DNA from: Yuukianura sp. NJ FZ-2021
Lineage: Eukaryota
Direction of reading: 5' to 3'
DNA length: 64,000 nucleotides
Assembly: GCA_046563655.1 (NCBI GenBank)
Contig: CM102290.1
Coordinates: forward strand, 14,756,001 to 14,820,000
Part shown: positions 1,477 through 24,100 of the stretch, piece by piece
Position numbering within the stretch: the first letter of the stretch is position 1
Layout: every line of letters begins with the position of its first letter
Notes under the pieces: model-generated
What the model was told of the DNA's origin: nothing
What the model saw: the letters and a program-made list of their open reading frames with translations, nothing else
Databases searched by the model: none
Position numbers and translations under genes: made by a program

Positions 1477-1924
1477 CATTTGCAGAGTCTAATTGTTGAG
1501 AGTGAGGAGCGAGCCTGAGGAAGAGTTAGATGTGATGGCAGTGGAATAATTAGTGTTATGTTTCTCGAACTATTCGTGTTAATTGCGTCAAGTGTGTTAG
1601 TTTAGTCTTAAAAATAAAATAGTAGTAAATATTGTCTACCGCAGTATATTTCTATCAGGCCTTGGTTTGATTTTTAACGCAATTAGATAGTAGATATTAA
1701 TAGTTTATGGTTTGGGGATGGGAGTGGGGTGCAGGCGGCTTGTTTTGAAAATTACAATCTTACGTAGATTACGTAAGTTACGATAATTACGTAAGTTACG
1801 TAGTTTTCGGCAAAAATACCGTAATTTTCGAACCCTGTTCATGTATATGCAAAAACTGTACAAAAAATGTGCAAGAAATGTGCAAAAAAACTCAAAAGTT
1901 AACAATTTTGTAAAAGGGTCATAC

Positions 1925-4900
1925 CTGTGCAGAAAGTGGAGCATTTCTCCAGTCAATGAGTGAGCGGGAGTTGATTGGATAGGCGGGCAGATTTGAAATG
2001 AGACCAAAAACGAGTTGACCATTTTGCAGTGACCCTTCCAGCTTCAAGTCCTCTTTTGTATTTCGCTCCAGGCGGATCATGGCCTTCGAATCTCCAAATT
2101 TGAGTGACCAAACGACATTTTCCAATTTGTAAAGTGGACTGTTAAATTGAATTCGGATTTCTCCGGAATCTGAACCGAACCGACCTTCCATTTTGCCCAT
2201 GTACCGAACGCGGTCGTTTTGAAACTTGAAACTGCCGGTACTCCGGACTTGACTGAGACTCACGTGAGTTTCTCCATGGAGTGTCCGGTAGCCTTCAAAC
2301 GGAGTCGTAATGTCGCAGTTGACCTTGAATTGTCGCAAACCGTCGAATGACCCTTGCAATTTAAGGTCAATGACCTTTTCGTTTAGTTGGAGCGACAGAG
2401 CAGTGTCGGACAGGCGACCATAGTTGCCAGAAGCAACGAAGTTCCGGACAGGAGCAAATGACGAAGCGGCTTCCACTTTGAAGGCGGAGCTATTCAGAGT
2501 AAAAGAGCCCGCGCAGGAGTAGTCAACACCGTTGTGAGTTAGAGTAGCTCGCAAAGACGTTTCACCTTCAAGGTCAACCTGAAAATTTTAAAATTTTGAA
2601 AAAAAATTCTTTCAAAATTTTTGAAATTTTCATTTTTTTTTCAATTTTGACATACTTTCATGGCCAGGTCAACGCCACTGGTAAACCGGATCTGCGGAAG
2701 TTGCAGGGAGCCCTTGAAGGTCATCTCTTGACCTTGACCTTTGGGCAAGGTCAAATACACTTCGGATTTAAGTACTTCAGAGTCCTTCGAGAGGTCAAAG
2801 GTTACTTTATGGCTGTTTCCAGTCTGTTTGTACTGCGCATGACTCTCGACGTGTTCCCATCCAACTATGGTGCTGTCCACGGTGACCTTCAAGGTCATGT
2901 CACCATTCCCTGCGTCGCTGTTCAAAAATTGACCTTTCGTTTGGAGGCCACTGACCCACCGGAAGTTGTCTTTTCCACGGTGCACTTCAATTTGTAGAGT
3001 TTTGCTGGTCGAAGTCCCCTCATAGCCAATAGCTCCATTGACTTTGTTCCACGGTTCTCTCAGGGGCGATTCGAGGTCAAAGGTCACCGTTTTCGGAGTG
3101 ACAGTGGCTGACCCGGTCAGCTGATTTTGTTGGCCGTTGAGGTTCCACGTGACACTGACTTTGTTTGTGCCTGAACCCAGGCGGGTAAGGGTACCCTTCG
3201 CCCCGAAGTTCTGGAGGGCGGGAAATGGCGTGTGAAGCTCAATTCGGATTTCGGAGGGTTCCAGGACAAACTGCCCGCCAACTTGGTGTTTCCGTCCGGA
3301 AAAGTCCAAGGATGCTTCAGCATTGTACCTAAGAAATCAAAATTTGAAAAATCAAAAACAAAATTTTTTGAATTTTTCGTTTTTTACCCTTTTCTAAAAT
3401 CGTATTTGAATTCGGCTGTTCCCGCCTCTTCTCCGCCAAGCGTCGCTTGACCAAATCCGTGCGTCGGACTGAAGTCCCAAAGAAATCTCAGAAGATGCGA
3501 TCGCTGATTCAGCGCTGCCGTGATTTGCAGCGTATTTGACTGTTCCTTAATAAACTGTACGGAGATCAGAAGTTTCTTGACGGGGTCAAAGGGCGTTGCC
3601 AGGTCAAACTCGACTTGTGTCGAGGTCAAAGTACCCCGCAGGGTCACTTTACTCTGCGCAGGGTCCAAGGACCCTTGGACCAATCCCTTCCACACATCTC
3701 CCTCTCTGTCATACTCTCCTTTGTAGTTGATTCTACTGTAGCCTCTCCACGGCGTTTCCACGGTGACCTCAATCCGTCCAGAACTTGTACTCGATTGTGA
3801 TTGGATGTTGATGCTGTACGCTGATTGGTCAATGCGCATGCTCAGAGTGGCCAAATTTTTAGTTCCTGCAAGATTCAGCTCTCCTTCTAAACTAAACTTC
3901 TTGAGTGACTGAAAAGGCATGTCCAGCTGAAGCAATATTTTGGACAGGTCAAGTCCAACTACAGCCTGAAATGCATAAGTCTTCTGCGTCTGCGTGACCC
4001 AGGCTCCCTTAAGGGTGTGTTTTCCAAATCCAAAGTCCCCTGCGTCAAGGTCATAGTCCATTGTGAGTGCAAACACTTTTCGGCCAGAGTGGATTGCAAT
4101 AGCTTCCAAGCGATAGTCGTTGTGCAAGGTCAAAGTGTAGCTCAATTCGTGTGACCCCGTGACCTTCAGTTCCAGTTCTTTCCGGGCGTAAGTCAATTCA
4201 CCCACTCCACTAACAGAACTTTTGCCGTTTAAAGTTTCAAAAGTGGCTTCAATTTCAAATTTCCCGGGAAATAGGCGGTACTTGGCGTCCAAACTCTTCT
4301 TGGCCAATAGAGCGTGTCCTTTTCCGTCCACAGCCAATTCCAGCTCACCTTCACTTCCACCGACCTTTTGTTTTTTTACAAAAAAAAAGTTATTACCGTA
4401 TTTCTTCGCATAAATCCACTAAAAAATCATTATTACCGCATTTCATCGCTTATGTTGTTAGGATAACATGACGACTATTTTTTTTAATAATTGGCAGAGA
4501 TGTCAAAAATATGTGCTAAAAACCCCCGAAATATGGACAAAAAATATGTTTTTTAAAAATCGCCCAAATATTTACTTATTTACATTAGGGGCATGGGCAA
4601 ATAAATAAATATTTAGAAACGAAAACCCCCCAAATATTTTTTTTGTTAACATTACGGGCATGGAGACTAAATATGTTTGACATCCCTGATAATTAGGTTA
4701 GTTAACTTCGGAACCTAACCGGATTTGAAATTACCTGGAATTTGACCTTGAGATTGATGAGTTCCTTCTGGGTTTCAGCGATGTCCAGCTCCATTCTGCC
4801 AGTTGAATAATCAAATTTTCCTTCTGCCTGGACCACATGACCCATCGGGCAGTCAAAATGCAGTTTTCCGCCAATATTCGAATCTTTACCAAACCACTCC

Positions 4901-7900
4901 ACTGCCCAATGGTAGAGTTGTGTTCCATTTAAATTGAAGTCCACAAAAGCATCTCCTCCTTCCTCCGCATTTTTCTGCACACCAAAGGTCACGTCGTAGT
5001 CAGGAATGAACGGCGTCGTCGCTTTGCCCCTCACGAATCGCTCTTCAAAACTGGCTTCTCCCTCTACCGTGAAATAGTCCGTACCAAACGAAAATCCACT
5101 CTGGAACTTACGATCTTTCAATGTAAAAATGAAAGCACCGCGGCGGTCATCCTCTCCTCCGAGGAGTGCCGAAGTTTTCCGAACGGTGTACTCTGTCTTG
5201 TGTTCCAACGATTGAATGTCTCTGAAGTCATGGTGACTGGCCAAGGTCACTTCGGGGATGAAGTTGAGTGGTGACGAAAGTTTAGCGGTCATGTCATATT
5301 TGAGCCAACTTTCCTGGTCCATGGCAACCGTGACCGTTGTCATGGCACGGTCCACCAATCCGAATTGAAAGTCCATCAAGTACGAATCGCTGCTGCGCTT
5401 ATGTTCAAATGAAACTAACATTTTCGGTCTGTCCGGCACCGTGGCCCACAATGACGTTCGGATTTCTTTAAAACCGTGAAACAGCCACTCCAGTCCGACT
5501 TCCGCGGTTTGGTCGTCGTAGGTTCCGCTGCACTTGAGTTGGAATCCGTCTTCGTCGGTACGTTTCGATACGAATCCAAGGTCGAACCGATGGTCCGGTA
5601 TTTTGGCGCCAAGAATCATTTCGGAATCTTCCAGGATGGAGTTGAACCGTCCGGCTGCCGTGAGTTGAATGGACTTCTGTGACCTTGCGTGACCTTGACC
5701 TTGGAACCATGTCAGGAGCAAAGAGTGACCAAATTCTGTCACCGTGCCACCGCGTTTGACCTCAAAGGTCACGGGAAATGCTGGATGAGGACCGTTGATG
5801 AACAGTTTAACTTCATGGTTCAAGTCAGAGTCAAAAATGGACAAACGACCTTCAAATTTTTCCAGATTTTGCCACGGCGTGGTTACCAAGAAGCTGACTT
5901 TGAGCGGATTTTGTAAGTGGGACACGCGACCTTCAAAAGTTTGACTTTTCCCGCCAAAAGTTTTCCAGCGCATGACAAACGTGTCGGTCACTTCAGAAGT
6001 TCTCTGACGATTGTACTCCGCCGAAATCTGTTTGAAACGAGAAATCAACAAAATTTAAATTTAAAAAAAATTTCAATTTAAAAAAATCAAAGAAGGTGGG
6101 AATTTGAAATAGGGCTGTCGCCGTTTCCGTGTAAAACGGGAACGGCGAAACGGACTTTCGTTTCCGTTTTTGTTTTGTTTTTTTTTTGCTAATTTGCCTA
6201 ATTTGAAATGTTGAATTTTGGAATTTTGAACTTACTTCAGGAATGAAGGAACAACCGCTGAAATCCAGTTTGACTGTGCGTGACCTTTGACCCACGGTGA
6301 CTTGACCTTTGAAAACTGAGGTCAGGAGGCCCTTTTGTGTCGTGACCTCTAGCAATCTCGTGTCACCAGAAGTTGACATTTTGGCCACAGCCGCCAGTTT
6401 GTCCATTCCAGAAGCTTCCAGCATTGCAGAAAAAGTGGACTGCGGAATGTCCAGGTTTCCGTAAAGAGCAGTTGCTGCTGTCCAGGCATCCCAGTGACCT
6501 TGGCACTTCGTGCTCAGTGTATTTCCGTTATAAGTGTGCTCAATTGTGAATCCAAGGGAACTGTACCCACTGACTGGAGTGGCAAGCGATGCAGCGATTT
6601 TGAATCGCTCAAGCGATTTCCAGTGGTTTTCCAGCGTGAAAGCAAATCGCTGTGAATCCAGTTCAGCTTCTACTTGGATCTTGCTGTCGAGATACACTCC
6701 AGCTAAGGAACCAATTCGACCGAAGTAGTCCACTTGACCTTTGATGCTGTGGTCGTTGACCTTTGCTTCCAAGGTCACTTTGTCGTTTGGATGAAAGTCT
6801 TTGTCCGGAATCACGGTCAGCTTACCCCAAAACAAGTCGTCGTCTACTTCCCTCAACTGCAAAAACAAAAAAAAATACCTTTTGACCTTCAAACTGAAAA
6901 AACCTTGAGCTGTTACCTCAAAATTGAATAAACCTGATAGGCAGTGGGAAAATGATAGGTGGTCGGAAAACTTGTAGGTGGTCGGAAAACTTTTCCGACC
7001 ACCTATCATTTTCCTATCACTTTCCAGATCACTTTTGCGACAACCTATTATTTTCCGACCACCTATAAGTGGTCGGAAATCTTATAGGTGGTGGGAAAGT
7101 GACAGGCTGACAGGTGGTCGGAAAACTTTTAGGTGTTCGGAAAAGTGATGGATAATCGGGAAGTGATAGGTGGTCGGAAAATGATAGGTGGTCGGGAAAG
7201 TTATAGGTGATGGGAAAATGGTAGGTGGTCGAAAAAGTAATATGTGGTCGGGAAAATGTATGGTGATGGTAAAATGGTAGGTGGTCGGAAAATGATAAGG
7301 TGGTCGGGAAAGTGATAGATGTGATCACTATTGCTGAAAAAAACCTTGACATTGAAAAAAATTGAAATCTTACGAGCAGTTCGGAGTAGAAATGCTGCGA
7401 GAAGTGGATGTCAGCAGTGTACGTTTGGTCACCTGACCTCGCCTGCCTCCAGTTGAGTTCACCCGAGTAGTTGACCCCGTTGAGGTCAACTTTTGCCTCC
7501 ATCTTGTGAGCATACCTCTTACTAGCGCTGTATTCAAAACTTCCTCCCCACTGTCCGCTGTAGCGCTCATTTCCTTCAATTTGAATCTTCGACGTCATCA
7601 TACTTTCCCGCTCACTTGCCACGAATTTCCCCGAAAACGATACCGGAACTCTCGCGAAATTTTCGACTCGCGCTTCCAGTGCGTGATCTTGCCGACGTTT
7701 ATTTGAACCGTTTTTGTATGTCACCGTGGCTTTCTTCTGGGCCGAACCGTTCGGTAGCACGACCAGTTCCGATTCGTATTCTCCGGTACGAACTTCGGTA
7801 ATTCCGCTTCTCAGAGCATGCGTCGTTCCAGGCCAACTCACTTCGGCATTAAAGTTCCTTTTGAGCAGTTTTTCATTTGTTCGGAGATACTCAGCTTGTG

Positions 7901-10900
7901 ATCGGAGTTCGTTTCGGGGGTCAAGTCGACCGGTGAATCTTGTGAAAATACCGGTTTGATTTTTTTGGTGTTGAAAGTCAACCAAGTAGTCGATTCGGTT
8001 TTGTGGTGCCGTGAGAGAAATGAGAAATTGAATGTCTTCCAGTTGGCGCCGATTTTGATTTTTAAAAAGTGTTTTGGCCTCCCACTGTGATTGACCTAGA
8101 ATGACCTTGACATTATTCTCAAAGTAGCCTCGAGCCATGGCCGTTTCCCAGGCGAAGTCAGTATTCAGAGAAGAGACTTGGGGCGAAGTGAGACTTGCCG
8201 CAGCAGAGTACTTGACCAAAGCGCCCTTTTCAAATTTTGAAAATTTCCCACCAAAATTTAAAACTCGCGGTTCCCCGGTTGTGCATGAATATTGGATTTC
8301 TGCCTTGGAAGTGACAAGCCCTGGCCGAACTCTGACCTGTGACCGCACATTACCTGTCACCAAGGAGGATTCGATTCCAAGCCGACTGCTGTAAGCATCT
8401 CGTTGGCGTATCACTTCACCTAAAAAAAATCAAAAATTAATGAGTTTTTGAAAAATTTGAATTTCAAAAAAAAAAAATTCTAAAATTCGAATGAGGAAAT
8501 GTGGCTACTTTTAACCGGTGTTTCGTAAAAAGCACTTTTTTAAAGTCGATGCTTTACTTTTTGCTGTAAATAGCTTTTTTTTTACTGTTTTTTTTGAAAA
8601 GTTGCTAGTTTGAAGTAAAAGTGAGAACCTGTGAGTTGGATTGGCTTCTCAGTCAAGTATTTGACCTTGAGGTCAACATTTGCTTTTCCGTCACTGTGCA
8701 GAATGTTGGCCAAGTACATGACCCCTTGGACATCGATGATTGGTCGATCGAAGTAGGACATGACAAAGTGAGGTTCCAATTTTGTATTTTGTTGTCTCAG
8801 GCCAGTGCTGAGCATAAAAATTTGTTCGTCTTTAGAGCGCAGACTCAGTTGCAAGTTCTGGGCCGTTTTGGAGTACATGCCTTGCGCCGTGAGTGACTTC
8901 CGCGGTGTTTCAATGGATGCTTCCAGCTTTCCTTGGGCAGTATCCAGCACATACGTGACTGCCAAACGACGGTCGACCTTTGACCCCGGAGTGTTAAAAA
9001 GTAAACTCACGTCTTGCTGCCCGCCGTCGTCACTGCCAAGCCATTTGTAATCAAATTCGTAACTGTTGAAAGTGTCAGTTTTTTCCACGGTCAAAGCAAG
9101 CGCCGCTGGTTTTAGCAGGGGGAAGCTCATTTCGTCCGGCATTGAAGCACTGCCGCAGAATTTTAGTCCAATCAAAGTCGAAACGATCTCTGGAGTGCAG
9201 ATTTCAAAGTCTGAAGAGATCTCGTGACCTCCGATGACCTCTGTGTAGAGGTCACTTGGTGACATAAGCACAAGTTGAGACTTGACCTCAAGAATTTCCT
9301 GTTTGGGTTGCGGTAGAGTCAGAGCAGCGTGGACGACATTTGAGCCCTTGATGAGTACTCTAGCTTGGACAGCCGTAGCAGTGTGCAGAGAATTTTGAAA
9401 TTTAACACCACTTTTCAAATTTGAATTTGAGCGCCCCAGGGTCACTCCCAAGTGCCCGTCGACTTGAAGGGCTCCACTGGGCTCAAGGGCTCCGTGAATG
9501 TCCAGTTCTTGGTCTTCCCAGAAATTGGCCAAATCAATCTTGCCAGACGCTTTGACTGCAACGGTCGACGCTGCTTGGACTCCAAGCGACAACGGAAGCC
9601 CCGCCCCCGTCGGCACAATGTACCTGTTCAAAAATAGTTCATTCATAAACAAAACTCTAATACTAAATTTCGAAATTTAAAATTTTCCTTATATTATACT
9701 CTAACTTTCATATTAAATTTCTAGCTTTTTGAATTTTTGAATTTCTCTTTAAATGTCATATTTTTCCATCAGAATCCGTCCAAATCCGGAATCCGGATTT
9801 TTTAATCAGAATTCTTCCAAATCCGAAATCCGGATCTAAATCCGGATTTTTTAATCAGAATCCTTCCAAATCCGGATCTAAATCCGGATTTTTTAATCAG
9901 AACAGTACCTCGAGTCCATGATGACATTTGACTTCACAAACTCCGCCTTCTTGCCAGTGCCCATGTTGTCAAAGAGATAAGTGATGTCCAGCCAGTTTCG
10001 TCCATTTTCATCCACCAGAGTTGGAGCCGTCTGTTTGTGCGAAAATTCAAAGTGTTTGTACGAAATTTCATTGCCGAAGATCCGGACGAAACCGGATCCG
10101 CCCGGAAGGTTGTCCCGATTAAGTCCGGCTTGGTTAAAAACTTGGCTGAGTCGTTCCACTTGGTTTGAAGTGGATGCCGTTCCGCTCCGTTTCGTTCGGA
10201 TTGAGTTCAGGGCTTCGGCGACATGCGGTTCCGGAAAGTATCCGGTCGGACCGAAGACGGATTCCAGAAGCGGTTCGAGTGAGTGAATTCGGCCGCCGAT
10301 TTCAAATAGGTTGATGGATTCACCGAAAAGATTTGTTGTGACATTGACCGTAAGTGAGCGGGGGACAAATGAACCGGGAGTGAAAATTAAGTTCGACTCC
10401 AGTCCGGCTCCCACGTTCACCTCTTCCCAAAATGTTGAAGTTTCAAAATTTCGTGAAAATTTTCGCGCGTCAGTATTGAATTTGTTTTTCAAAAAGTCAT
10501 TTGACAGAAGATCTTTCAGATTTTGTTTGTCCGGACTGGAAGTTTCTTGTAAGTTTGTCAGATGTGTCCACACAAATGAGCCAACTAAAAAATGTTTTCA
10601 AATTCAGAAAAAAAAAAGAATTTCAAAATTTTGAAAATTTTGAAAATTTCATACCTTGATTGACAGTATCCGTGTAGAGCGTATCCTTGACGACATCGAC
10701 CAAATCCCTACTTGGACATCGCATGGACACCAAGTATGCACCAATCCTAACTTCCGTTTGTTCCTTCATGTTTTGATACAGCGCTGTGATTGGTGCTTGG
10801 TCATAGTGGTCACAGGGCATGCGTCGAAAGGCTTCCAGCGCAGCCAATCGCGACTCGAGTGGATTCGTGGTGTCTTCAAAGCACTTGCGCAGTAGCTGGA

Positions 10901-13900
10901 AGCTTCTGTCGTCGGTTTCAGTCGGAAGGCGACCGGCGTTTCCGATGGCTTTAAGGCCAAACATGGCCCGTGTCAAGTCACGGTCGCCATATTTGGACAA
11001 CTTGCAGGATTGGCCAAGGAATGACAAGATTTTGCGCAGTGCGTCCTGGACAGGGGCTTCTTGACTGCAGTCGTCATGGTCACGGCAATACGCATGAATC
11101 ACGGAAGAAATGGACAAAAGAGCTTGGTTTCTTGGTTGACCGTCCAGAAGAGGCTGAAAAGCGAATTATAGAAATTATAGAACTTATGAAAATTATAGAA
11201 ATTATAGCGGGTGGTGACGCCACTTTTCACATTTTTTAGTAGAAATTTTGGAAATTATAGGAAGTGGTGACGTCACTTTACAAATTTTTTAATAGAAGTT
11301 ATGGAAACTATGATGGAAATTATAGAAATTATGGAAATTATAGCGTACGGTGACGTCACTTTTCAGAGTGGACCAATCACAGGAGCCGTTACAAAAGGGG
11401 TGGCAGGGGTTGGGAGGCGGAGCTTCTTAAATTCTCTTAATCGCATATTCTCTAATTTCTATAATTTTCATAATTTCTGTAATGTCCATAATTTCCATAA
11501 TTATTTCTACAATTCATAACGCAAGTTCCATAAAAGTATAAACTTACTGAAATGGCTGGAATCATTTCGAGACTTGGATGTTTGATAAACGCAATACTCG
11601 TGAGCCAAGCATCTATTTGAATTTCGGTGAGTTTGCCGCCAGAAAACATTTCTCGCATGAAGGTGAGCGCAGGGGCAGTTCCGACCAATGGCAGAGCATC
11701 GAGTAGAAACGTTCGAGCGACGTCGCTTGGTGCTTTGTTGAACAAAGTAGAAATGACGGCATAGTTGACCGTTCGCAGGCGAGTGACGAGGTCAATGAAC
11801 TTCTCCGGAGCGAAGACGCTGACCTTGGGCACACTCTCACGCTCCAGGTCACTCAAAAGGTCAAGTATTTCCTGGATGTTTCCGTCAGCAGCATCTTCCG
11901 GTCCTTGGGCCTCGTACGTTAAACTCAACTTCTTAAAATCTCTCCAATCCACTAAATAGCCAAAAATAAGGTAAAGTAATCGAAAGTAAAGTAATCGAAA
12001 GTAATTGTACCTTGTTTATAGTTTGGAGCAGCTCGGGAAGATTCGTAGACCAATGACTGCGACACGACCGTTGTGACAGCACTGCTTGACCTGTCAAAAG
12101 GCTGAAACTTGTGTTCTTCCGTACATTCAACCTTGGTCAGCTGTTGATTCCGAAATGTCTGAGTGCATTCCTGGGCTCCAGATAAAAGCGGAATGTTTTG
12201 AACCGGAGAGCTGGAAGCGTACGGAACAGACTGAATCGCTGAAATGTGGCTGGATCGCTGGCTGCATGACTTGAAGTTTTTGGTCCTCTTGACCTGAGAT
12301 TCAGTCATGAGGTCATAGCGGGTCAAGCAGTTGCCATGGACGTCTCTCTCATGGACTGTTTGACCTCGGTTGAGGTCATCCATTGTGTTTTGAAGGACAG
12401 ACAAAATTCCTCTCTTGACATTCACAACCCATCGTTCCTCACCTTCTCCTGAACAAAGATGTTCGACTTTGCCGTTCTGGAAGGAAAACCGGAGCGGAGA
12501 TTCCGTAAGTTCCCGAATCAGTTGATCCGAATTCGGCAAATCGGTTTCCGGTACTTGGCGGTTGGTCGGATGAGATTCCGTAAGTCTCACTTCTTTAAGC
12601 TGTGGACATACAAAAAAAAACGTTTTTCAGCCGACAAAAAAAACGTTTTTCGAACGACAAAAAAATAGTTTTCAAAAAACGATGTAATTTTGAAAATGAA
12701 CAAAGAAAAACTAAATTTTTGAATTTCCCACCTCCAGCTGCTGTTCACATCCCGTGATCGCCGTAATTTCTACAACGGCCGTTAGATGAAGCCGAGATTC
12801 TTGGGCCGAAGCTCCTGCAGCAAAAGTTCGAACGTCCGTACGGTATTTGTACCGAGTTGTCGTACCGGGTCGAAGTCCAAACTTGGTCGATTCTGCACAA
12901 AAAATTTTTTGCAACTTTAAATAATTCGCAATTCTAAAAATGTGCAAATTTAGAAATCCTAGAAGTTTTTTTTATCATTACCTTTGCAAAATGAGGCACA
13001 TTTGAGCTGTGACGTTCCTTTCGGGCCGGGGCTTATCGCAATTCTAGAAATCGTTTCTAAAACGATACAAAAGGAAATCGCGACGTGAATTTTTGATTTC
13101 ACTGAATTTCGCGACGTGAAAATTCGACTAAGTACTTACCAGTGTCGTCTACATTCAAGTTAACATAGGAATTGCGTGTGGGAGCAACTTTGAAGTCAAC
13201 TCGACATCGGTATTTTCCCTCATCTGCTGGCGCCACATTTTGAATTTCCAAAACCGCCGGAACGACATTCATGTCAAACCGACCTCGTGTTCCAAGTACC
13301 GTTTCGTCGGACCAGTGCTGGACCGATCTACCTCTTGAATCCACACTTAACAAAACAAAAATTTCAAATTTTCAAAAACTTTTTGTTGAAAAACTTGAAA
13401 TTTCAAAATGCCTTACCTGTAGATGGGGCGTCCCAAGTCCTCTCTGTACCACAGCACAAGAACTGCTTCGTCCTTGACACTCCGGAGGGGGGTGGAGTTT
13501 GGAACGGAAATATCACAGGGTAACTTCGCAACTCCATTCGCTACTGCTTCAACGTCTCTCGTCTCAACTTCAAAAAAACGAAAAATCAAAGAAAAAGTTT
13601 AAAAAAACTGAAATTTCGAAAAGTCAACTCCAACAAACAACATACATATCAAGTCGTAAACCAAATCCAGAAAAACATCACGTGGGAAATTTGTTTTCCG
13701 TTCTTTCTTAAAGTAACTCTAAACGCGGTCAAAGTTCAACTCTCACTCTTTTCACAAGTCGCAATAAACAATTACATTTCAAAATTTCCAAAAGTTACGT
13801 AAAATTTTGGAGTTTTTAAAAATTTAAAAATTTCAGATTTTCCAAAATTCAGGAATTCAGCAGAATTCCTGTAGTCACAGCTAATTGTTTCAGCGTGAAA

Positions 13901-15726
13901 ACTTTCTATGTCCTTGTATTATTATTTGTTGATATATTTATAAATATATATATTATAATATGGGTCCATGCCAATACATCGAAAAAAACACATCGAAACG
14001 AAAGACATCGACACAAAAGACATCGACACGAAAGACATCGACAATAGAAACACATCGACAATGAAACACATCGACAAAAAAGACATCGACCAAAAAGACA
14101 TCGACAATAGAAACACATCGACACAAAAGACATCGACAATGAAAACACATTGACACAAGGGACATAATCCGTATAATTAAATAAGCAAGGAAGTTTACGT
14201 AACCTAAGTGAAAAAAACACTAGTAAAATTTTGAAAAGTCCACCTAAGCCAGACCTAACAAGTGACCCTACCGACGTAATCACTATGGCGTGCTTTACCA
14301 AACCTAACGCCGCGCCTTCGGCGCGGTACCGCAAGCTAAGCTAGCCATACGTCATCAGTATTGCCAGACATATTTTTTTTTCAAAATTTGAAGAAGAATA
14401 CGCAATTTCATTTCCTGGTATAAAAAATAAAATTTCTGTCGATGTCTTTTCTGTCGATGTGTTTCGTTGTCGACGTATTTCTATTGTCGATGTCTTTTTG
14501 GTCGATGTCTTTTTTGTCGATGTGTTTCATTGTCGATGTATTTCTATTGTCGATGTCTTCTGGGTCGATGTCTTTCGTGTCGATGTCTTTTGTGTCGATG
14601 TCTTTTTTTCGATGTAATGGCGTGCTTCGTTATAATATATTTTTAGCAAAGGTCATCTTTTCAGCGTTACAAAAGTATGCTGCAGTTTTAAACTTTAAAA
14701 ATGGTTGAAAGTGACTTGACCCCAAAAGTTGTTTGTTCTAGCATGTTTTTCTTAGGATTAGATTAGAAACTAACAAGCCATTAATTTCAAAAAAAGTTTA
14801 AAAAACATGTCGTTAAGTTCAAAATTTTGAAAGTGAGGAGCTCGTGTGTTGGGGTGACGAATATGGAGAGATTGGAGTGTTATCATCCTGGAATGACCTC
14901 AGGGTGTCAGTAGATACTGCAGAGAGTATATGACGAAGTGGACACCCATGGCCACTCCCTATGTCCACTAGGTGACATCATGGACCACGGACATGAATGG
15001 ACCAACTTCAGTCCAAATCTTAGTAAATTTGCGCATGTCGCACTTTTTTTCCCCCGTTTCCTAAAAAAATGAGCGTGTCAAAGGTGATGATTTGGAGGAA
15101 AGTGATCAAAAGGCTTTTGAAATTTTTCCTTCGTAGTTTCCACAGAAAAAAAGAGTCTGTCGAAGGATATTGACTTGACCTCTGCGCAGGTCAAAGTCCA
15201 AAGTCTAACTTAACCAAAACTAACCCAGTTTAATTAACAATTAACTTAACTAATTAATCAACAATCTTAGTTAAAGCAGTGCTAAGGAAAATTTTAAATA
15301 CGAAAAAGCTTGTCTTTATCCCTAGCAACAATTTGGAAGCAAAAGTTGAACCGAAGTTCAACTGAACTTGAGATGAGTAAATTAAAAATATAAAAACAAA
15401 AGTTACAAAATTTAAAAAATTTCTTTAAAAAAATTTAAAATGGCGACCTTAGTGGATCCTTAATCCATAATCCATATGGAACATATTAAGCATTTGATGC
15501 ACTTCCACAATGTCTGGAATTTTGGAACTTTCACCGAAACACAAGGGGGGGGGGGGTATTCGGAGGAGGAGCTAAGAAGGGGGGGGGGTTGAGGGGTACG
15601 GGGGGTTGCTTTACCTGGAGATACGCTGGGCAGAACAAGCAAAATGGCGGCCAAGATTGGCCATTGCCAACGTTTTCGAAGTGGGCTAAATCCACTCGCT
15701 GTTTTGTCGGGAGCGAGTTGATCCAT
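1925..15726 (-). CDS. Large lipid transfer protein (apolipophorin/apoLTP-like) with an N-terminal Ig V-set domain; 3' partial. Exons: 15615-15726, 13417-13567, 13140-13345, 12982-13056, 12732-12892, 12011-12599, 11548-11951, 10655-11153, 9909-10584, 8629-9623, 7374-8419, 6236-6856, 4735-6027, 3388-4364, 2656-3328, 1925-2578
   Basis: 16 GT-AG exons with consistent phases total 9132 nt (3044 codons, no stop). LLT/vitellogenin-N motifs: PLRFSFQNGKV...NVKRGILSVLQN, ERDVHGNC, LKAIGNAG, EVRIGAYL, NQVGSFVWTHL, FSRNFE, SFVPRSL, YIVPTGAGLPL. Furin-type RTKR at ~10187-10198. Long amphipathic beta-strand region follows. The last donor at 1924 shows the gene continues left of the window. Confidence 0.88.
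4495..4688. mobile_element. hAT-like MITE in an LLTP intron
   Basis: TIRs CAGAGATGTCAAAAATAT / ATATGTTTGACATCCCTG. 8-bp TSD ATAATTGG / ATAATTAG (7/8). Confidence 0.75.
6935..7320. repeat. Degenerate intronic repeat (ATAGGTGGTCGGAAAA) in both orientations
   Basis: The motif repeats, with a palindromic junction AGGTGGTCGGAAAA-C-TTTTCCGACCACCT at ~6976-7004. Confidence 0.8.
9768..9902. repeat. Short tandem repeat (AATCCGGAT...TTTTTAATCAGAA), ~3 copies
   Basis: Visible repeated units in an LLTP intron. Confidence 0.75.
11162..11530. repeat. GAAATTATA/GGAAATTAT 9-mer low-complexity repeats with an inverted block
   Basis: Forward copies at 11162-11345 and reverse copies at 11450-11510. Confidence 0.65.
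13967..14624. mobile_element. Foldback/MITE-like element with long inverted arms of CATCGAC repeats
   Basis: Left arm 13967-14160 (ACATCGAC units) and right arm 14435-14624 (GTCGATGT units). Ends CATGCCAATACATCGAAAAAAA / TTTTTTTCGATGTAATGGCGTG. Core has AACCTAA motifs and a GC hairpin CCGCGCC-TTC-GGCGCGG. Confidence 0.75.
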
Positions 15727-18700
15727 GTTTAAAAAAGTTTTTAGAACAAGCACAATTTAAAAAAAAACTTATTGTTTTAAATATTTTCAAAAAACAAGTT
15801 TCCAAAAGTTAAAAAAGAGTGGAAGAAAAGTGGAAGATGATCTGGAGCCTATTTATAACATTGGTCACCCCCAGTTTGTTGGGGTGGCAAGTGGACTTTG
15901 ACTCCGCAGCGACGCTGAACGCTGGAAGGACCTGGAAGCGACTCTGACTCGTTCAAGCGCCAACTTTAACTTGGCTCTAGCCCCTCTCACATCAGTTAAG
16001 GATTTAAGTTGTGCACCAATTAATTGATTCATCATTTCTTGACCTTTGCTGAGTCTCAAAAACAAAGCAACTTTTTAATTTTTTAAACTTTGGCTTATTG
16101 AAAGGTACTCTCACTCTCAATGTTTTAAACTCTAGTCTTGAAATCCCTGACCTTTGACCTCTGCACCAACGCAGTCCTGAATTCCAAGGAGACCCAGTTT
16201 CCAGGAAATCTAGATCTAAACTTGCACTTTTTTTAAAAAATCCTAAAGTTGCAAATTCAGAGGAACAGTAAATCCCTTTGTTCAATTTAAAAACAACTTT
16301 TTCATTTTTAAGTCACCAAAATTTAAAAAAACAACAAAGTTTAATAAATGTTATTCATAAGCACGAGTCTGCAGATTCACTAATTATTTACTTATGCATT
16401 AAGTGAATAATTAATTATAATAATAATATAATATATATAATAATAACAATCATTAAATTTCACAGAGATTCGTTTAAAAAAAAATATTTGTTTTACTATT
16501 GGTTTAAAAAGTTATTGGTTTAAACATTTTGGCGTTTGGAAATTTGGCGTCAAAGAAGAGGCGGGAGAAATTCAAAATAACCGGAACCTTTTCTCACTAA
16601 AAAAAAAAGCAGGATTAAAAAAGTGAAAGTGGGACAGTCATTTCCATTTGTGTCGTTCATTTCGTTGTGACCTCGACTGTCCACTAGGTCAACACGTCGA
16701 TTGATTGTCCAGGACGTCCCGTGTCAACTACTGTCACTGTCACACTGTCCATATTCGGGTGAGTCGGGACAGGATTTGATAAAAAACGATTTAGAAACGA
16801 TAAGCATCAGCTGTTTTGTGGTCCGCTGGAATCTTGACCTTTGACATCCATCGAGCGACATCACACTGCATTGTAGTACTTAAACGAAGGTAAGTTAACG
16901 TTAATGTAACTGTAAGTATCAAAAAATACTGGAAGTATCATGGTTTCCTTCATTTTGTGACATGGTGTGTATCTGAACGTTTATTGTTCTTTTTCAGGTG
17001 ACACGGTGACAACTGGACATTGTCCAGCGGACAACAACGATTCAAACACTCAACTTTGGTATTTCAAATCACAATTTGCACACGAATTGCACCAATTGAT
17101 AAACATAAACGTTTGTTGAACGTTTCCTTTGTTTCTGTGTCTTTTCTAGAAACCTCAAGAATCTAAAAAAAAAATTGTGCGCTACAGAAGTGTCACTCTC
17201 AATCAATCAACTTGTCCAGCACGTTTTTAAGAAGTAACTCCGGTGGTGCTGCTGAATTGACCTGTGAAGACTCTAATTTGACCAAAACTAGACACCATGT
17301 CTACGGAAAATGGTAATGTCTTTGTTTCCTGTTGTTACACAAGTGATAAGTTAGGACTAATCTAATCTCCATTTGTTTCCAAACATGTAAATTGTTACAC
17401 GAGCCAAAAGTCAAGCCTAACCTATAATAAGTTTTAAGCATTTTGAGTTCCTGGAAGCTTGACCTTGGTCAAATCTTCGGTGTGACGTTACCTTGGACCA
17501 TAATCGGGTCAATCGTTCCTTCAACGTTTTTTTTTTTTTTTTGTTTGAGGAGTGAAAGTGATTCGGGGGATTTGTTGACACAAGAAATTAGAAATGGAAA
17601 CTTCATTGTTTCGGTGTGAAAGTGCTATAACTTTCGGATGATTTTGAATTGTTATAGTATTTGAATGCACTATGGACCATTAAAATGTGAGTTAATTGTC
17701 AATTAACTTTTATTGTTTTACTATCAGGACGCCTACCGACTTATGGTTCAGTTGACACTCGGACTGGAAAGAAGGAGGTTTAAAACTTTGTACAGAATCT
17801 CCTTTTTACACAAGTTGAAGCACTGACTCTGCAATACCAAAAAGATCATCTTCTACGACTCTAAAAGCATGTAAGAGATTTAAAAACTAAAATTTTTCAA
17901 ATTTAAAAACATTTTTAGTACGTTGAGTTCAAAATGTTATGATTTTATGCTATGTTTCACCGTAAATTGCACATTTCCGTTGTGGAAATGATGCATTTTA
18001 GAAAGCACTTGGGAAAATTTTTTGAAGAGTCGAGTGAGTAATGGTCTCAATTGAGTTCATCATTTCAAAAGTCAAACAAAGGTCAAAAGTCATGTTCTAG
18101 AAACATTTTGCAACATTGCAATTTTTAAGAAAACTACAAAGTAGGATGAACGTGATAAAATGTTAGGGTAATGCAAAACTTTTAGCGAAATGTTAAATTT
18201 TAACAGTGTAAGCAAAGAAATACAATGGGAAAGGGACGGAAGTGAGGTCAAAGGTCACCGTTTCCTTTACACTTCCCTCCTGCTGAAGCTGAGTTATAGT
18301 ATAACTTTTAAAGAAAAATTTTTGAAAACTTTTTGAAACGAAAATTTTTCAAAATTCCGAAATCATCCAAGTAGATTTGAGAATCATGGCCTTCAGCCAA
18401 TCAGAATCGACCTTTTGGAGTTCACGTACTTTTTAAAAAATTTTGTTTTGACTGCATTCAAACTTGTTTTTTTCTCGATTTTATGGAAGTTTTTTTTATG
18501 AAGGTTGATGCGAGGTTGCTTCATGTGAATTTTTGAGTAGAATTGGACAATCTGTGATGGAAAACCTGTTTGTGAGGATAAAATTTCAAATGGGGGCGGG
18601 GTGAACAATTTAACTTGGAGGGGGGAGGGGGAGACGGAAAATGAGAAAAGATAATCAACGCAATCTTTTTTTGGTTTTTGAGAATGTTTTCAAGGTAGAA

Positions 18701-19832
18701 GGAACCGTGGAAATTGTTATAAAAAAAAGTTAATCGGCATAAAAATTATGATTGTAGTTTTTGTAATGCACTTCACTTGCTCCCTTTACTTGCTTTTGCG
18801 TAATTTGGAAAAATAGGCTATAAAATCATTACATTTTGACTGCACATACAAAAATGACGCAAAACTTTTTTTTTTTTGAAAATGAGGAAGCATGTTCCTA
18901 AACATACAAGATTCCTGAGAAATTGTAAATTACAGTTTCTGTTTTCATTTTTGAGAATTTGGCGGGGAATTCCTGAGGTAGCTTGAACGTAACTATTTTG
19001 TAGTTTTTTTTTCTTGGTTTCTGTGAGTCTTTTCCAAACTTTTCCCAATTTTGAAAAATAACCTTGTCATTTTTTGTTTCAAATCCTTCAAATCAACACA
19101 AGTTTTTGTTTTTCATGTTTTTAGAGTGTCCTCCACTTCCTAATTTTGAAATTTTTAATTTTATTTCACCAGGGAACAACTATCCCTATTTTCCTTTTTT
19201 TTATTGGAAACAAAAGTGAAAGCGCACGTTGTACAAAATTTTAGTTTTTTTTTCTCGAAATTTGATGCCGGTGGGATTTTGAAAAATTGCAACACTCGTT
19301 TCATCTCTGTTTTTTTCTCTTTTCTGATTTTTTTGTGACCTTGTGCCCTGGTTTCCTGAGAAGTACATTAGGTTTATGCTGAGGTCAAATAAAGTGTTGA
19401 GTGATTGATGAGAGGCCGGATGTAGAGAAAAAGCACTTTTGAAAATGTTAAAAGTGCTTGGTGGGAAAAATCATAAAAGTTGAAACTCATTTTTTAGGGT
19501 TTCGTTTTTTTCGTAAATAGTATTTCCCAAATTTCGAATTTTCCCGTTCCACGTCATCCTTGCTGATGATCCTAACTTTTTTTGTGTTCCTTGTGAGAAA
19601 GTGAATTTGTTAGCATGTTTTGACTGGATAGACGAAGTAGTAAGGTGGATATTGTTTAGTATAGAGATGATGATGCCAATGGGAATCCAGGAGAGAGGTG
19701 TCAGGTTGTGGATCCGCCTCAGGCGAGCCACTTTTACATTCCCACCACTCGAGGTGATCAAATATTATAAAGGAACTGGCCACAATCAAATTCAAAATCA
19801 GTGATTCCACCAGTGTGCAACTGGACTCATAC

Positions 19833-19871
19833 TCATCATCATCATCATCATCATTTTGATCATCATCATCA
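19833..19871. repeat. (TCA)n microsatellite
   Basis: Visible run. It gives the spurious poly-Asp ORF. Confidence 0.85.
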
Positions 19872-20016
19872 ATCCTCTTTTGAGCTTTCTTCAAATTTTG
19901 AATATCTTCATCTGCACATTTTGAATCTTTACACTGCCAGAAGCCAGAATTTGTTGTCTCCGTCTGTGAAAAGTTAATTTTTGAAATTTTGACTTTTGAA
20001 ACTTAGAATTTTGAAA

Positions 20017-22001
20017 ATGAGTTGTGGAAATGCTGGACCGTGGCCAGAGGATGTTGGACTGCTGGGGATCGAGCTGTACTTTCCGTCGCAGTATGTTGAC
20101 CAAACTGAACTGGAAGTATTTGATGGCGTTTCGGCGGGAAAGTACACCGTTGGCCTTGGACAGGACAAAATGGGCTTCTGTTCAGACCGGGAAGACATCA
20201 ACTCACTCTGTCTCACTGTCGTCAAAAAACTACTCGAGAAACATAACATTGGTAACTTTTCAAAATTTTGAATTTGAAAAACCTCATTTTTGAAAATTGA
20301 CGATTTGTAATTTTGGTGGACATTTTTAGGGTATGAGCGAATTGGTCGCCTGGAAGTTGGGACAGAGACGATTCTGGACAAGTCCAAAAGTGTCAAAAGT
20401 GTGCTGATGCAACTGTTTGCAGACTCGGGCAACACTGACATCGAGGGAGTCGACTCAACAAATGCTTGCTACGGCGGAACTGCTGCTCTCTTCAATTCCA
20501 TTTCATGGATTGAGTCCAGTGCTTGGGACGGTAAGAAATCTAGCAACTTAAAAAAGTTTTTTCAAAATTTTGGAAATTTTTGACTAATTTTGGAAATGAC
20601 TAATTTGAAATTTTAGGAAGACTTGCGTTGGTGGTTGCTGGAGACATTGCGGTCTATGCTAGTGGAAATGCGAGGCCGACGGGTGGTGCTGGAGCAGTTG
20701 CGATGCTGATTGGTCCCCACGCTCCCCTCGTAGTAGAACGAGGTAAGAAATCTCAAAACCAAAAAATTTACCGTATTTCCACGCCTATAAAACGGCTTCG
20801 CGTTTAACAAGTACTCAGAAAACAGAAATTCTCAAAAATACTCCAATGGAGACAAAAACCTAAAGTTTAAAAGTTAAAAACATACTTTTTTTTGTCAGGT
20901 TTCCTAACTTTCTAAGTATATTTCTCTGTTCCAAGTTTTTTCTTCTGAATTTTTCATATAAAAGGTGGCTTATAAGCGAGGAAATACGGTAGTTAAAAAA
21001 AATTGACAAAAAAAATTTGAAGTCAATCAGGAAAAGTCATGGGAATTTCAAAATGTTGGGAAATTTTGACTAACGAGTTTTTTTTTGTGATTCCAGGTCT
21101 GCGCGCTACACATTCTGTCCATGTCTATGATTTTTACAAACCGGATATGGAAAGTGAGTATCCGCGTGTGGACGGGAAACTGTCTATCCAGTGCTACCTT
21201 TCATCGCTGGACAAATGCTTCCAGCGATACCGCCAAAAAGCTGAAAAGAAAAGTTCAGAGAAAGTGACTTTGAATTCATTTGATGCCGTCGTGTTCCACT
21301 CACCCTACTGCAAGTTAGTCCAAAAGTCACTTGCTCGACTTGTTCTCAACGATGTTGTTGCCATGACGCCCGCCGAAATTTCCAAAACGTATCCAGGCCT
21401 GGAGGGACTCCGGGAAACGAACTTAGAAGAGTCGTACTTTGACCGTGATGTTGAAAAAGCACTGCTCACTGGATCGCAGAAGCTGTTTGATGCCAAGACA
21501 CGCCCTTCGCTGCATGTTGCTAACCAAGTTGGCAACATGTATACTCCGTCAGTCTACGGTGGATTGGTGTCCTATTTGATCAGTAAATCCGAGGAGGAGT
21601 TGGTGGGAAAACGGATTTGTTTGTTTTCTTATGGATCTGGCTCAATCGCTTCCATGTACTCCATTCGGGTGAAGTCGGAGAATCGCTCGGCTCTCAAAAA
21701 ATTGTTGTCGGGAATTTCGGATACAGAAACGAGACTTTTAGCGAGGAAAAAAGTAGATCCAGCAGCATTCTCGAAGACGATGCAGTTGCGACAGGACGAG
21801 CATCACTCTGGTAATTGAAAATTATTAATTATGTTTTGATGATGGAAGTTAATTGAGTTTTGACTGACGTTTGTAGCTCCGTATCGTCCGGTGGGCAGTG
21901 TGGCTGATCTGTTTGGTGGGACGTACTACGTGGACAGCATTGATGACATGCACCGTCGAAAGTACTTGAGAGCTGGTGACGCCGTCAATGGCCAGAAATG
22001 A
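20017..22001 (+). CDS. HMGCS1: Hydroxymethylglutaryl-CoA synthase (cytosolic type), ~466 aa. Exons 20017-20251, 20330-20530, 20617-20742, 21097-21810, 21877-22001
   Basis: WPEDVG...[18 protein letters not shown], catalytic [44 protein letters not shown]. Phase-consistent GT-AG introns. Confidence 0.97.
20771..20989. mobile_element. Tc1/mariner(pogo)-type MITE in HMGCS intron 3
   Basis: TA-flanked TIRs CCGTATTTCCACGCCTATAA / TTATAAGCGAGGAAATACGG. Confidence 0.85.
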
Positions 22002-22354
22002 GACAACTATTTTTGTAACTAGTTTCCTAAGAAATACTTCAAAGACTTCATCATCATCACAGTTTTAGAGAGAACTTGAGAGTAACATTAACCTAATCAT
22101 ATGGTGGTGGAATCAATAACTTTAAAGTTGACATGGAACATAGCTTTAGTAGTTAAATGTCAAGGTAAACCCATTCCGTTGTTATTACTTGTCATTGACC
22201 TTACTAGTTAGACCAAAGAAGGAATAAATTACTCCACAAAAGCCAGTCTGCTTTGCTCCTTTACTAAATAAAAACGAAATGCTCAATTAATTAGAAGTTT
22301 AGTAAGAAAAGAGGATTTAAGAAGAGTTAATTAATTAAGGGTGATCAGCTGGAC

Positions 22355-23162: not shown

Positions 23163-24100
23163 TTTAGTTGTATGGGAATTAAACTTGGTCAATTAACAAA
23201 ACTTAATTAACAATTAACTTAATCGTAACAATCAATCGCTTCCTGTCTCTTGTGAATCAAAAAGATCAAGATCTTCTTGCCGTGTTTTTCTTTTTGTGTG
23301 CGTCTCTCTGCAATTTTTGCTCGGTTTGAATTTGGCGGTATCTTTTTCCTTTACTTTTGAGACGAACTGCCGCGACTATAAATTCTTAGAACAACAGTGA
23401 ATTCTTAGAACAATAGTGTTTTAATTGTAATTATAAATTGATAATATATATTATTATAATTATAACCAAATAAAAAATATTTATATAAATAAGAATGCAT
23501 TAAAATGTGTTTAAATATTTTGTGCTTATAGACCGTAGCAACAAAATGTAAGTTTAAAAAAATCATACAACGTGATACGTGAGGCCCCGAAAAATTATGT
23601 TGTTTTTTTTTTCCGAAATAGCAAAGTAGCAACTTATTTTTGCAAAGTTTAGCAAAGGCCGTTTTTCTCATTAATTCCTCGTTTTGTGTGAGGTTGAGTA
23701 AATCATTTGTCATTGTGAGAGACAAGGAGAATGTAGGTGTGCAGAGCTTAGCGTCTGACACCCCACAAACTAATAATTGAGTCGTTGGAGGATTTGAATG
23801 TTGGCGGCTAAACCTCACCCAAGATTAGCCTTAACATTGGGCGCCCTTATTTGAAAAAAACATATTTTTTGAAAATAAGCGCCCTTGTTCCAAGATACAA
23901 TGAACCATAAACCTGTCCAATTTCAGTTGACAGCTTCATAACCCCGATGACTCAAACTGACCAAAAATGAGTCCATTTTTACCTGGACAGTGGACATTCT
24001 TCTATTGTTCTCGTGTCAGTTGAGTTGTACCACCCAAGACACTTCCCTAGGTCAAAGGTCAACAATTTGTGAAAAAGAACAAAGGAGCGAGGAGTTGGGC

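Follow-up and report, generated by a model that had tools for sequence, protein, structure and literature searches.

Within the 64-kb stretch of DNA that was analyzed (the window), the first immunoglobulin (Ig) domain of a Sidestep (Side) family protein appears to have been inserted into an apolipophorin-II/I (apoLp-II/I)-type lipid carrier gene, and the domain is probably spliced in and fused to the carrier. The carrier gene would have gained a two-exon copy of the Side first Ig domain (Ig1) in its ancestral phase-1 intron 1, with 83 nt left between the copy and the first exon of the mature carrier. The Ig exons would be spliced into some or all mRNAs, the product would run from the signal peptide through the Side-type Ig into the carrier, and a furin cut at an RTKR motif would leave the lipoprotein particle with a small (apoLp-II-like) subunit that begins with the Ig; skipping of both Ig exons would give the ancestral carrier protein. 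Splicing, secretion, cleavage, and binding of the fusion are predicted from the gene sequence.

All features of the gene lie on the minus strand. A TATAAATA box at 15850..15857, ~125 nt upstream of the ATG, is the sole TATAAA within 16000-15727 and the presumed core promoter of the gene. Exon 1 (15726-15615, 112 nt) contains the ATG start and a signal peptide, assigned from a basic n-region followed by a hydrophobic run, and ends in a phase-1 donor (CAG/gtaaag). Intron 1 (13568..15614, 2047 nt) holds a foldback repeat element at 13954-14637 (170-nt arms, 15-nt subrepeats) and is followed by the two exons of an Ig V-set domain. Exon 2 (13567-13417, 151 nt) encodes the first half (A-C strands, B-strand Cys, C-strand Trp) between an AAG acceptor preceded by a T-run (tttttttgaag) and the donor CAG/gtaagg; its 5' end is uncertain, as two more in-frame AGs lie 21 and 24 nt inside and would make it up to 8 codons shorter. 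Exon 3 (13345-13140, 206 nt), separated from exon 2 by the phase-2 intron 2 (13346..13416, 71 nt, 21% GC), encodes the second half (C'-G strands, D-x-G-x-Y-R-C-R-V-D-F) and ends in the phase-1 donor CTG/gtaagt. Intron 3 (13139-13057, 83 nt, phase 1), which carries a 19-nt direct repeat (13078-13096 and 13109-13127), links the Ig module to the lipid carrier, that is, to exon 4 (13056-12982, 75 nt, phase 1 to phase 1), encoding the N-terminal peptide of the mature carrier with a C-A-S-F-C-K motif, and to exon 5 (12892-12732, 161 nt), where the Vitellogenin_N (LLT) domain starts (Pfam profile positions 2-47).

Exons 2 and 3 together measure 357 nt (119 codons) with phase 1 on either side. GT-AG is found at every junction, and the reading frame stays open across exons 1-5 both with the Ig exons and with the Ig exons skipped, so that the Ig-skipped form proposed in the original prediction from the 1-1 phase is permitted. 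With 71, 83, and 89 nt, introns 2, 3, and 4 resemble the short introns of the carrier gene in length (59-132 nt in the clear cases). The exon coordinates and phases and the in-frame 13140>13056 join of the original prediction were reproduced to the base, and its junction peptide NVDDTETISR is exactly what the predicted exon 3-exon 4 splice yields. It had also left no room for a separate promoter or signal exon, which agrees with the length of intron 3 and with a search of intron 1, where no credible alternative ATG or signal exon was found (each of the 16 candidates falls within the repeat arms and has a poor donor). Overall, the Ig exons are a real, intact gene structure within the lipid-carrier gene.

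The domain encoded by these exons is best assigned to the Side Ig1 type, in agreement with the identity first proposed for it. Residues 1-116 of the 119 in the spliced Ig can be aligned with Ig1 of Side-type proteins at an identity of 44-51% (E 1e-26 to 3e-35), the exon 2/exon 3 junction being crossed free of gaps, and the end-to-end match at E about 1e-30 makes the likeness more than chance. The best four PDB matches are Ig1 of Drosophila Side IV, VI, and VII (E 3e-14 to 6e-12), and the best single-stretch protein matches reach 50-60% identity over the exon-3 half of the domain. The best-matching proteins are 566-1070 aa long and are matched at about residues 30-160, and one cluster among the relatives carries the name "Sidestep protein" (Anopheles). 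Among 13 matched Side-type proteins scanned, a V-set match covers Ig1 in 11 and all 13 contain further Ig domains; fn3 lies above the Pfam cut-off in four and below it in two more. Exon 3 alone, which encodes half a domain, falls just under the Pfam cut-offs for I-set (E 6e-5, 23.5 bits vs 23.7) and V-set (E 9e-5, 23.1 bits vs 26), and exon 2 alone gives no Pfam match.

The alignment contains the V-set fold signature (B-strand Cys, C-strand Trp, F-strand D-x-G-x-Y-x-C) and every column that is invariant across 10 aligned Side Ig1 domains. The exon 2/exon 3 junction rebuilds the Side-conserved P-I-Y-S-x-D-x-R, and the R-C-R-V-D F-strand is intact, with an Arg after the F-strand Cys and the R-x-R-x-D triad. 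According to PMC12258940, this Cys is followed by Arg or Lys in every Side and by Glu in every Beat, Ig1 alone mediates binding, and the Side R190A-R192A-D194A substitutions abolish Beat-Ia binding. Many ORF-level Side fragments begin at the position of intron 2, which suggests that this position was inherited from Side genes. The B-C loop of the Ig carries an in-frame insertion of 6 residues that includes an N-S-T sequon. In a tree of 24 Ig1 domains, the Ig joins no supported Side subgroup and its terminal branch is long (0.81 vs a median of 0.14). It nevertheless keeps the fold core, which is expected for a domain that has long evolved under constraint.

No other Side exons were detected in the 64 kb: six out of six full-length Side-type queries match only 13613-13105, and no Ig or fn3 besides exon 3 was identified among 111 reading frames (at least 45 aa) in 12900-24500, which bears out the earlier view that the remaining sidestep exons are missing. 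A whole Sidestep protein was rejected as a candidate, the remaining Ig and fn3 exons being absent from the window. Only Ig1 exons are present and the introns of the carrier are too short to hide further ones; the Ig is therefore a Side-derived module and not a Sidestep protein.

The domain content of the surrounding exons identifies this arthropod gene as one of the apoLp-II/I-type large lipid transfer protein (LLTP) genes. The remaining LLTP exons (1919..12599, minus strand, several intron positions placed by heuristic only) encode Vitellogenin_N, Vit_open_b-sht, DUF1081, and a long beta-rich region. The Vitellogenin_N match announced by the original prediction is clear: exon 5 opens the profile at position 2, the exons after it give E values of 2e-33, 8e-12, and 9e-22, and positions 2-580 are covered over four exons. 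Vit_open_b-sht (E 4e-35 and 4e-18) is matched at positions 1-302 over two exons and DUF1081 has an E value of 1e-6 (29.5 bits vs a cut-off of 25). Furin cleavage into subunits is part of apoLp-II/I biology. A furin-type RTKR motif at 10198-10187 (minus strand) lies ~700 residues into the mature carrier with the Ig not counted; no other R-x-[KR]-R occurs in the 11 LLTP reading-frame pieces that were scanned. Cleavage is predicted at this motif, and the Ig would stay on the N-terminal product, as had been proposed. A C-terminal von Willebrand D (vWD) domain is a feature of apoLp-II/I-type LLTPs. About 2800 carrier residues are visible in the window, and nine reading frames scanned in 1261-8429 contain no vWD match; the 3' end of the gene is probably cut by the window, with the gene running off the window start, or lies beyond minisatellites.

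Two relatives were compared at the N-terminus. A related metagenome locus (L001) contains a homologous signal exon (94 nt, phase 1) with a similar end (P-T-V-T-P vs P-S-V-S-P in the window), a homologous phase-1 intron 1 of 1222 nt in which the Ig is absent, a homologue of exon 4 (2685-2750, 66 nt) with the same phases and the same C-A-S-F-C-K, and a homologue of exon 5 (161 nt, 62% identical). Furthermore, it has a TATAAAG at a similar distance upstream of the ATG and an RSKR at the position aligned with RTKR, in an exon of 73% identity. Among named database proteins, the nearest to the carrier is P0001, an "apolipophorins-like" protein of the gastropod Gigantopelta aegis, in which the LLT is preceded by just 30 residues. 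Both relatives thus start directly with the LLT module, as the original prediction had stated for LLTPs. The signal exon and phase-1 intron 1 are best read as the carrier's own ancestral structure into which the Ig exons were inserted. L001 shares the signal exon, the phase, and the downstream exons and lacks the Ig, which argues for a lineage-specific insertion of a phase 1-1 module into an intron of matching phase, as in exon shuffling. Since L001, the closest relative compared, lacks the Ig, there is no second lineage in which its conservation could be seen. A link of this Ig to the N-terminus of an LLT was found in none of the best 150 Ig matches from a 1.84-billion-protein library.

The Ig exons resemble the coding sequence of this genome. 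They reach a log-likelihood of 0.21 per codon when read in frame (-0.03 and -0.40 in the other frames), compared with -0.64 +/- 0.19 (maximum -0.28) in 103 non-coding windows, and their GC content is 0.53 and 0.48, compared with 0.21 and 0.36 in the flanking introns. The 55 windows taken from the exons of the carrier itself all score higher than 0.21 (minimum 0.27); their scores are inflated because the coding model was trained on these exons. Both Ig exons have AAG acceptors; the nine confidently placed acceptors of the carrier are CAG or TAG, with one uncertain AAG in addition, a count biased to YAG since the first acceptor heuristic favoured a pyrimidine at -3. With the AAG acceptors, a cassette or an exon of weak inclusion is no less plausible than constitutive use. 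The phase 1-1 symmetry, consensus donors, and T-rich acceptors, together with flanking introns of typical short length and a placement between the only promoter and signal exon and the rest of the gene, make it most likely that the Ig exons are spliced into at least part of the mRNAs. As skipping them restores the ancestral protein, a cassette mode is equally possible. On balance, expression of the predicted fusion is favored, with considerable room for doubt.

The strongest alternative, to which we give roughly a one-in-four standing in our judgment, is that the Ig exons came from segmental copying of the 5' portion of a host Sidestep gene, Ig1 exons and internal intron included, and sit silently in carrier intron 1, being spliced in never or at noise level, with the carrier made from the exon 1-exon 4 splice. 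The AAG acceptors and the lower coding score would both fit a silent copy, the ancestral splice of exon 1 to exon 4 remains intact with its frame kept, L001 functions in the absence of the module, and the fusion is absent from database proteins. Ig exons are commonly phase 1-1, which gives the in-frame fit a sizeable prior; the fit would then follow from the fact that phase 1 is usual for Ig exons as well as for signal-peptide introns. If a divergent host Side gene had been copied recently and the copy were still intact, selection at the locus would not be needed to account for the intactness, codon usage, and long branch. However, skipping exons with 71- and 83-nt introns, strong donors (gtaagg, gtaagt), and T-rich tracts would be unusual in a gene with many short introns. 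The frame is open, and all invariant Side residues and the in-frame 6-residue loop insertion are intact despite the long branch. Within an interval of 2.6 kb, the module ends just 83 nt short of the exon 4 acceptor, a position that would be unlikely if random and expected if a working intron had been selected.

A short product made of exon 1 and the Ig exons with intron 3 retained, acting as a small, secreted, unfused single-Ig Side-like decoy, is very improbable. Read-through of the exon 3 donor would reach a stop after 13 codons and give a 132-residue Ig product (without the signal peptide), and a secreted Ig1-only form is plausible in that Ig1 suffices for Beat binding (PMC12258940), but there is no AATAAA or ATTAAA in 13140-12600, the exon 3 donor is the closest to consensus among the five donors of exons 1-5, and a retained-intron mRNA would run into the 10-kb carrier gene and be a target of nonsense decay. 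An assembly artefact that mis-joined the Ig segment into the intron is the least credible, since the foldback in intron 1 is the type of sequence where assemblies break but the key join lies elsewhere, in 83 nt of unique sequence between exons 3 and 4 of a window without N, and it would be an extraordinary coincidence for strand, phase, and splice signals to match at both ends.

If the fusion is made, its most likely added function would be docking of the particle or the N-terminal subunit on Beat-like Ig receptors, proposed because the Ig keeps the F-strand residues that Drosophila Side needs for Beat binding. The full scenario is speculative and rather unlikely as it stands: a lipoprotein with a working Side Ig1 on its small subunit might use the Beat-Side code to dock on Beat-expressing cells (neurons, glia, or muscle precursors), delivering lipid selectively or competing diffusibly with membrane Side, and splicing of the 357-nt cassette might toggle addressed and unaddressed forms. 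For lipophorins, the presumed route to tissues involves heparan sulphate and receptors of the LDL-receptor family; an Ig recognition domain built into the particle would, if true, be a different addressing principle. To our knowledge, the contact of motor axons with their substrates is the only setting in which Beat-Side recognition has so far been known to act as a cue, and Sides and Beats are studied as membrane-bound wiring molecules in arthropods. A Side Ig1 on a secreted particle would widen the Side-Beat system past cell-cell contact. PMC10084454 states that no orthologs of Sides or Beats are reported outside arthropods. If the Ig exons are silent, they would be an ordinary intronic gene fragment. 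Whatever the function, the locus offers a clean natural case of exon shuffling in which the recipient intron, its phase, and the unmodified state in a relative are all visible, so that the origin of a mosaic gene is directly testable.

The gene shares with the insect apolipophorin-II/I precursor and arthropod LLTPs the signal peptide, Vitellogenin_N, the open beta-sheet domain, DUF1081, the long beta-rich region, and a single R-x-K-R ~700 residues in. It differs from insect apolipophorin-II/I by a 119-residue Side-type Ig between the signal peptide and the LLT module, and by the lack of a visible vWD in the window, where the 3' end of the gene may fall outside. With Sides, the Ig shares the V-set Ig1 motifs P-I-Y-S-x-D-x-R, W-x-D, G-x-R, and Y-R-C-R-V-D-F and apparently the same internal intron position. 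Whereas Sides consist of five Ig domains, one fn3, a transmembrane helix, and a cytoplasmic tail (PMC12258940), the window contains Ig1 only, joined to a lipoprotein gene, and this Ig has the B-C loop insertion, a different end after the G strand, and a branch outside all sampled subgroups. A vitellogenin fused with an SOD domain occurs in branchiopod crustaceans (Daphnia, Artemia) according to PMC5963186. The SOD-fused vitellogenin combines an enzyme-like SOD with a yolk protein and has protein-level evidence, whereas the predicted product of the window would combine a cell-recognition Ig with an apoLp-II/I-type carrier. The SOD fusion, for which Kato et al. 2004 and Chen et al. 2011 are reportedly the sources, is a precedent for the addition of an unrelated globular domain to an LLTP.

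The 5′ end of the lipid-carrier gene was read from the minus strand with the exons joined by coordinate, and the exon model obtained is identical to that of the original prediction. Exon 1 (15726-15615, 112 nt) starts with an ATG, its peptide has a basic stretch and then a hydrophobic run, and its donor (CAG/gtaaag) is in phase 1. Exons 2 (13567-13417) and 3 (13345-13140), separated by a 71-nt intron, encode the Ig domain, and intron 3 (13139-13057, 83 nt) connects exon 3 to exon 4 (13056-12982), which is followed by an 89-nt intron and exon 5 (12892-12732), all on the minus strand. The two Ig exons comprise 357 nt and are flanked by a phase-1 intron on either side, so that the reading frame stays open with or without them. 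An alternative acceptor for exon 4, an AG located 13 nt further in, was rejected as out of frame with all phase-1 donors. Introns 1-3 were also screened for hydrophobic peptides that start with an ATG and end in a phase-1 GT; the 16 candidates all have poor donors and are located in the foldback repeat arms of intron 1. As predicted, there is thus no credible separate signal exon for the carrier, and exon 1 is left as the sole credible start of the carrier as well as of the Ig exons.

Several repeats are found in this region. The foldback element in intron 1 (13954-14637) consists of inverted 170-nt arms (13954-14123 and 14468-14637, 89% complementary, 344 nt between them), each with ~12 copies of a 15-nt unit that contains CATCGAC; it probably represents a transposon of the MITE or foldback type and is the main reason for the 2 kb length of intron 1. 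A 19-nt direct repeat (family D13, 13078-13096 and 13109-13127, 84% identity, 31 nt apart) with a TCGCGACGTGAA core takes up much of the 83-nt intron that links the Ig module to the carrier and could be an insertion scar or a splicing control element. A 16-nt repeat (family D14, 15/16 identical) at 12926-12941 in intron 4 and 13036-13051 at the start of exon 4 may represent a small local duplication or chance.

The carrier start had been assigned to the vitellogenin-N/LLT domain, and Pfam places the beginning of Vitellogenin_N at the start of exon 5, with Vitellogenin_N, Vit_open_b-sht and DUF1081 in the exons that follow. The long downstream exons match no Pfam family; the beta-rich lipid-binding part of apoB-type carriers is usually without one. 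The furin-type RTKR motif expected at ~10190 is present at 10198-10187 and is the sole R-x-[KR]-R among 11 reading-frame pieces. Overall, the carrier displays the tested features of an apoLp-II/I-type large lipid transfer protein (LLTP) except for a vWD domain, which was not seen within the window. Short tandem arrays at 7108-7321, 9760-9902 and 11190-11311 coincide with intron positions in the carrier gene or lie close to them. The frame of the first array is open, with many F-P-T-T-Y-like repeats, which makes the exon-intron boundary there ambiguous. Two minisatellites just beyond the last visible carrier exon, at 4-602 (27-nt unit, 22 copies, 98% matches) and 811-1229 (35-nt unit, 12 copies, 93% matches), may be located inside an intron ahead of the missing 3′ end.

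The identity of the Ig domain was analyzed by sequence searches, alignment and phylogeny. Exon 3 alone, which encodes half of the domain, scores slightly below the Pfam thresholds for I-set and V-set, and a HMMER search with it gave 1364 matches at E ≤0.001 among 1.84 billion representative proteins. Among the best 150 of these, the top summed scores belong to giant multi-Ig proteins and the closest matches in a single stretch, with 50-60% identity over the half encoded by exon 3, lie at residues ~30-160 of proteins with 566-1070 residues. These proteins are found in decapods, one amphipod and insects, and one matching cluster bears the name Sidestep protein (Anopheles). In a Pfam analysis of 13 of the closest proteins, a V-set match covered this first Ig domain (Ig1) in 11 and an fn3 match was obtained in six (four at or above the Pfam cut-off, two below); all 13 have additional Ig domains. 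The spliced 119-residue Ig aligns with these Ig1 domains over its full length (44-51% identity, E ~1e-30) and the exon 2/3 junction is crossed without a gap. All invariant columns in an alignment of the window Ig and 10 Sides (11 sequences) are kept in the window Ig. In the PDB, it matches best with solved structures of Drosophila Ig1 domains, the top four being from Side IV, VII and VI; these structures are reported in PMC12258940. According to the same source, Beat is bound through Ig1 of Side. All Sides have Arg or Lys directly behind the F-strand cysteine, where all Beats have Glu, and the triple mutant R190A-R192A-D194A of Side loses Beat-Ia binding (PMC12258940). The window Ig carries R-C-R-V-D at the F-strand cysteine position. 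Together with the full-length identity and the PDB matches, this bears out the proposed Sidestep first-Ig identity, and the window Ig shows the features of a Side Ig1 that were tested. Two features set it apart from the 10 aligned Sides: a six-residue insertion that precedes the C strand and contains an N-S-T sequon, and a different end after the G strand. In a maximum-likelihood tree of 24 Ig1 domains, from which 14 near-duplicate cluster members had been left out beforehand, the window Ig has a terminal branch of 0.81 compared with a median of 0.14 and falls into no supported subgroup.

The Ig domain stands alone, as had been claimed. In tblastn searches of the 64 kb with six full-length Side-type proteins, only 13613-13105 was matched, and of the 111 reading frames in 12900-24500 with 45 residues or more, exon 3 alone has Ig matches. 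The short carrier introns leave no room for further Side exons. The gene does not have the Sidestep architecture and is therefore not a Sidestep. The next gene upstream encodes HMG-CoA synthase (19993-22000, plus strand, at least five exons, HMG_CoA_synt_N and _C with E down to 1e-83); it is divergent from the carrier gene and ~4.2 kb from the carrier ATG, so that a lipid-carrier and a mevalonate-pathway gene adjoin. Further along are an adhesion-type GPCR (24941-30742, plus strand, GPS motif and 7tm_2), a cuticlin-like gene (32204-34421, minus strand, PAN domain and CUT_N), a further PAN-domain exon (40313-40699, minus strand) and a P-type cation ATPase (55839-61569, plus strand, Cation_ATPase_N, E1-E2_ATPase and Cation_ATPase_C).

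When metagenome contigs were searched with exon 6, one related locus was found (L001); its sequence (1-6789; 45% GC compared with 40% in the window) covers the first third, at the 5′ end, of a carrier gene that is an ortholog or a close paralog. Identity to the window gene is 52% for exon 4, 62% for exon 5, 53% for exon 6 and 73% for the furin-site exon, where an RSKR site is conserved. The L001 gene has a TATA-like box and then a 94-nt signal exon with a phase-1 donor after P-T-V-T-P (P-S-V-S-P in the window), followed by a 1222-nt intron, a 66-nt exon that runs from phase 1 to phase 1 and ends in C-A-S-F-C-K as in the window, and a 161-nt exon equal in length to exon 5. A search of L001 for an Ig remnant with the window N-terminus and the six Side-type proteins gave matches at E ≥0.59 only, none of them on the coding strand within intron 1. 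The apolipophorins-like protein of the gastropod Gigantopelta aegis has just 30 residues ahead of the LLT module, and the assumption that related LLTPs start directly with this module is thus confirmed in both relatives. An origin of the signal exon from a Side gene was ruled out, as L001 has the carrier's own homologous signal exon. The comparison suggests that the signal exon and its phase-1 intron represent the ancestral structure of the carrier and that the Ig exons were added in the window's lineage, a gain there being more parsimonious than a loss in L001 based on two taxa and one outgroup. A gain also agrees with the insect apoLp-II/I.

Judged from the genomic sequence, the Ig exons are fairly likely to be included in at least part of the transcripts. 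Their donors are strong, the introns on either side of exon 3 have the short size typical of the carrier gene, and the exons form GC-rich islands (GC content 0.53 and 0.48) flanked by AT-rich introns (0.21 and 0.36). The in-frame codon score (0.21 per codon) exceeds those of the other two frames and is far above those of 103 non-coding windows (-0.64 ± 0.19, maximum -0.28). The frame is open and all fold-critical residues are kept despite the long branch, and just 83 nt separate the end of the module from the exon 4 acceptor. These features speak indirectly for usage. The alternative that the Ig exons are carried in an intron but unused is rather unlikely. A recent copy of a divergent, unsampled host Side gene would, however, be intact without selection at the carrier locus, and three observations cast doubt on usage: both Ig exons have AAG acceptors while nine confidently placed carrier acceptors are CAG or TAG (a heuristic placement whose first version favoured a pyrimidine at -3), the codon score is below that of all 55 carrier-exon windows (the training exons of the model itself), and no second lineage shows the module. 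If the exons are included, constitutive use is about as likely as use as a cassette that can be skipped. A short Ig-only product, for which a poly(A) signal was not found after exon 3, and a mis-assembly are both very improbable.

In a product that contains the Ig, this domain would become the N-terminus once the signal peptide is removed, and it would remain with the small apoLp-II-like subunit of the particle when furin cuts at RTKR. This placement is based on the arrangement of the parts and on the processing of apoLp-II/I, in which furin cleavage yields a small apoLp-II subunit. The most specific functional guess for the fused Ig, by analogy with Drosophila, where Ig1 is described as sufficient for Beat binding (PMC12258940), and given the key residues present in the window Ig, would be docking to Beat-like receptors, although this is a long shot.

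Word-indexed searches of proteins with up to 2000 residues, a size range that excludes full-length LLTPs, returned nothing bearing on the Ig-carrier junction: 10 candidates and no significant match for exon 3, 24 candidates and none for exon 5, and one match among 902 candidates for exon 6 (the 886-aa Gigantopelta protein). The exon 4-5 peptide matched only the G. aegis apolipophorins-like protein in a local BLAST against 178 retrieved proteins (all other rows E ≥6). None of the best 150 of the 1364 Ig matches carries an LLT N-terminus, these being cluster representatives in which a representative without the Ig would hide a fusion. At title and abstract level, the papers listed in the literature searches contained no description of an Ig domain on an LLTP. 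A precedent is provided by the SOD-fused vitellogenins of branchiopods described in PMC5963186, in which, as proposed for the window gene, a foreign domain is joined to an LLTP.
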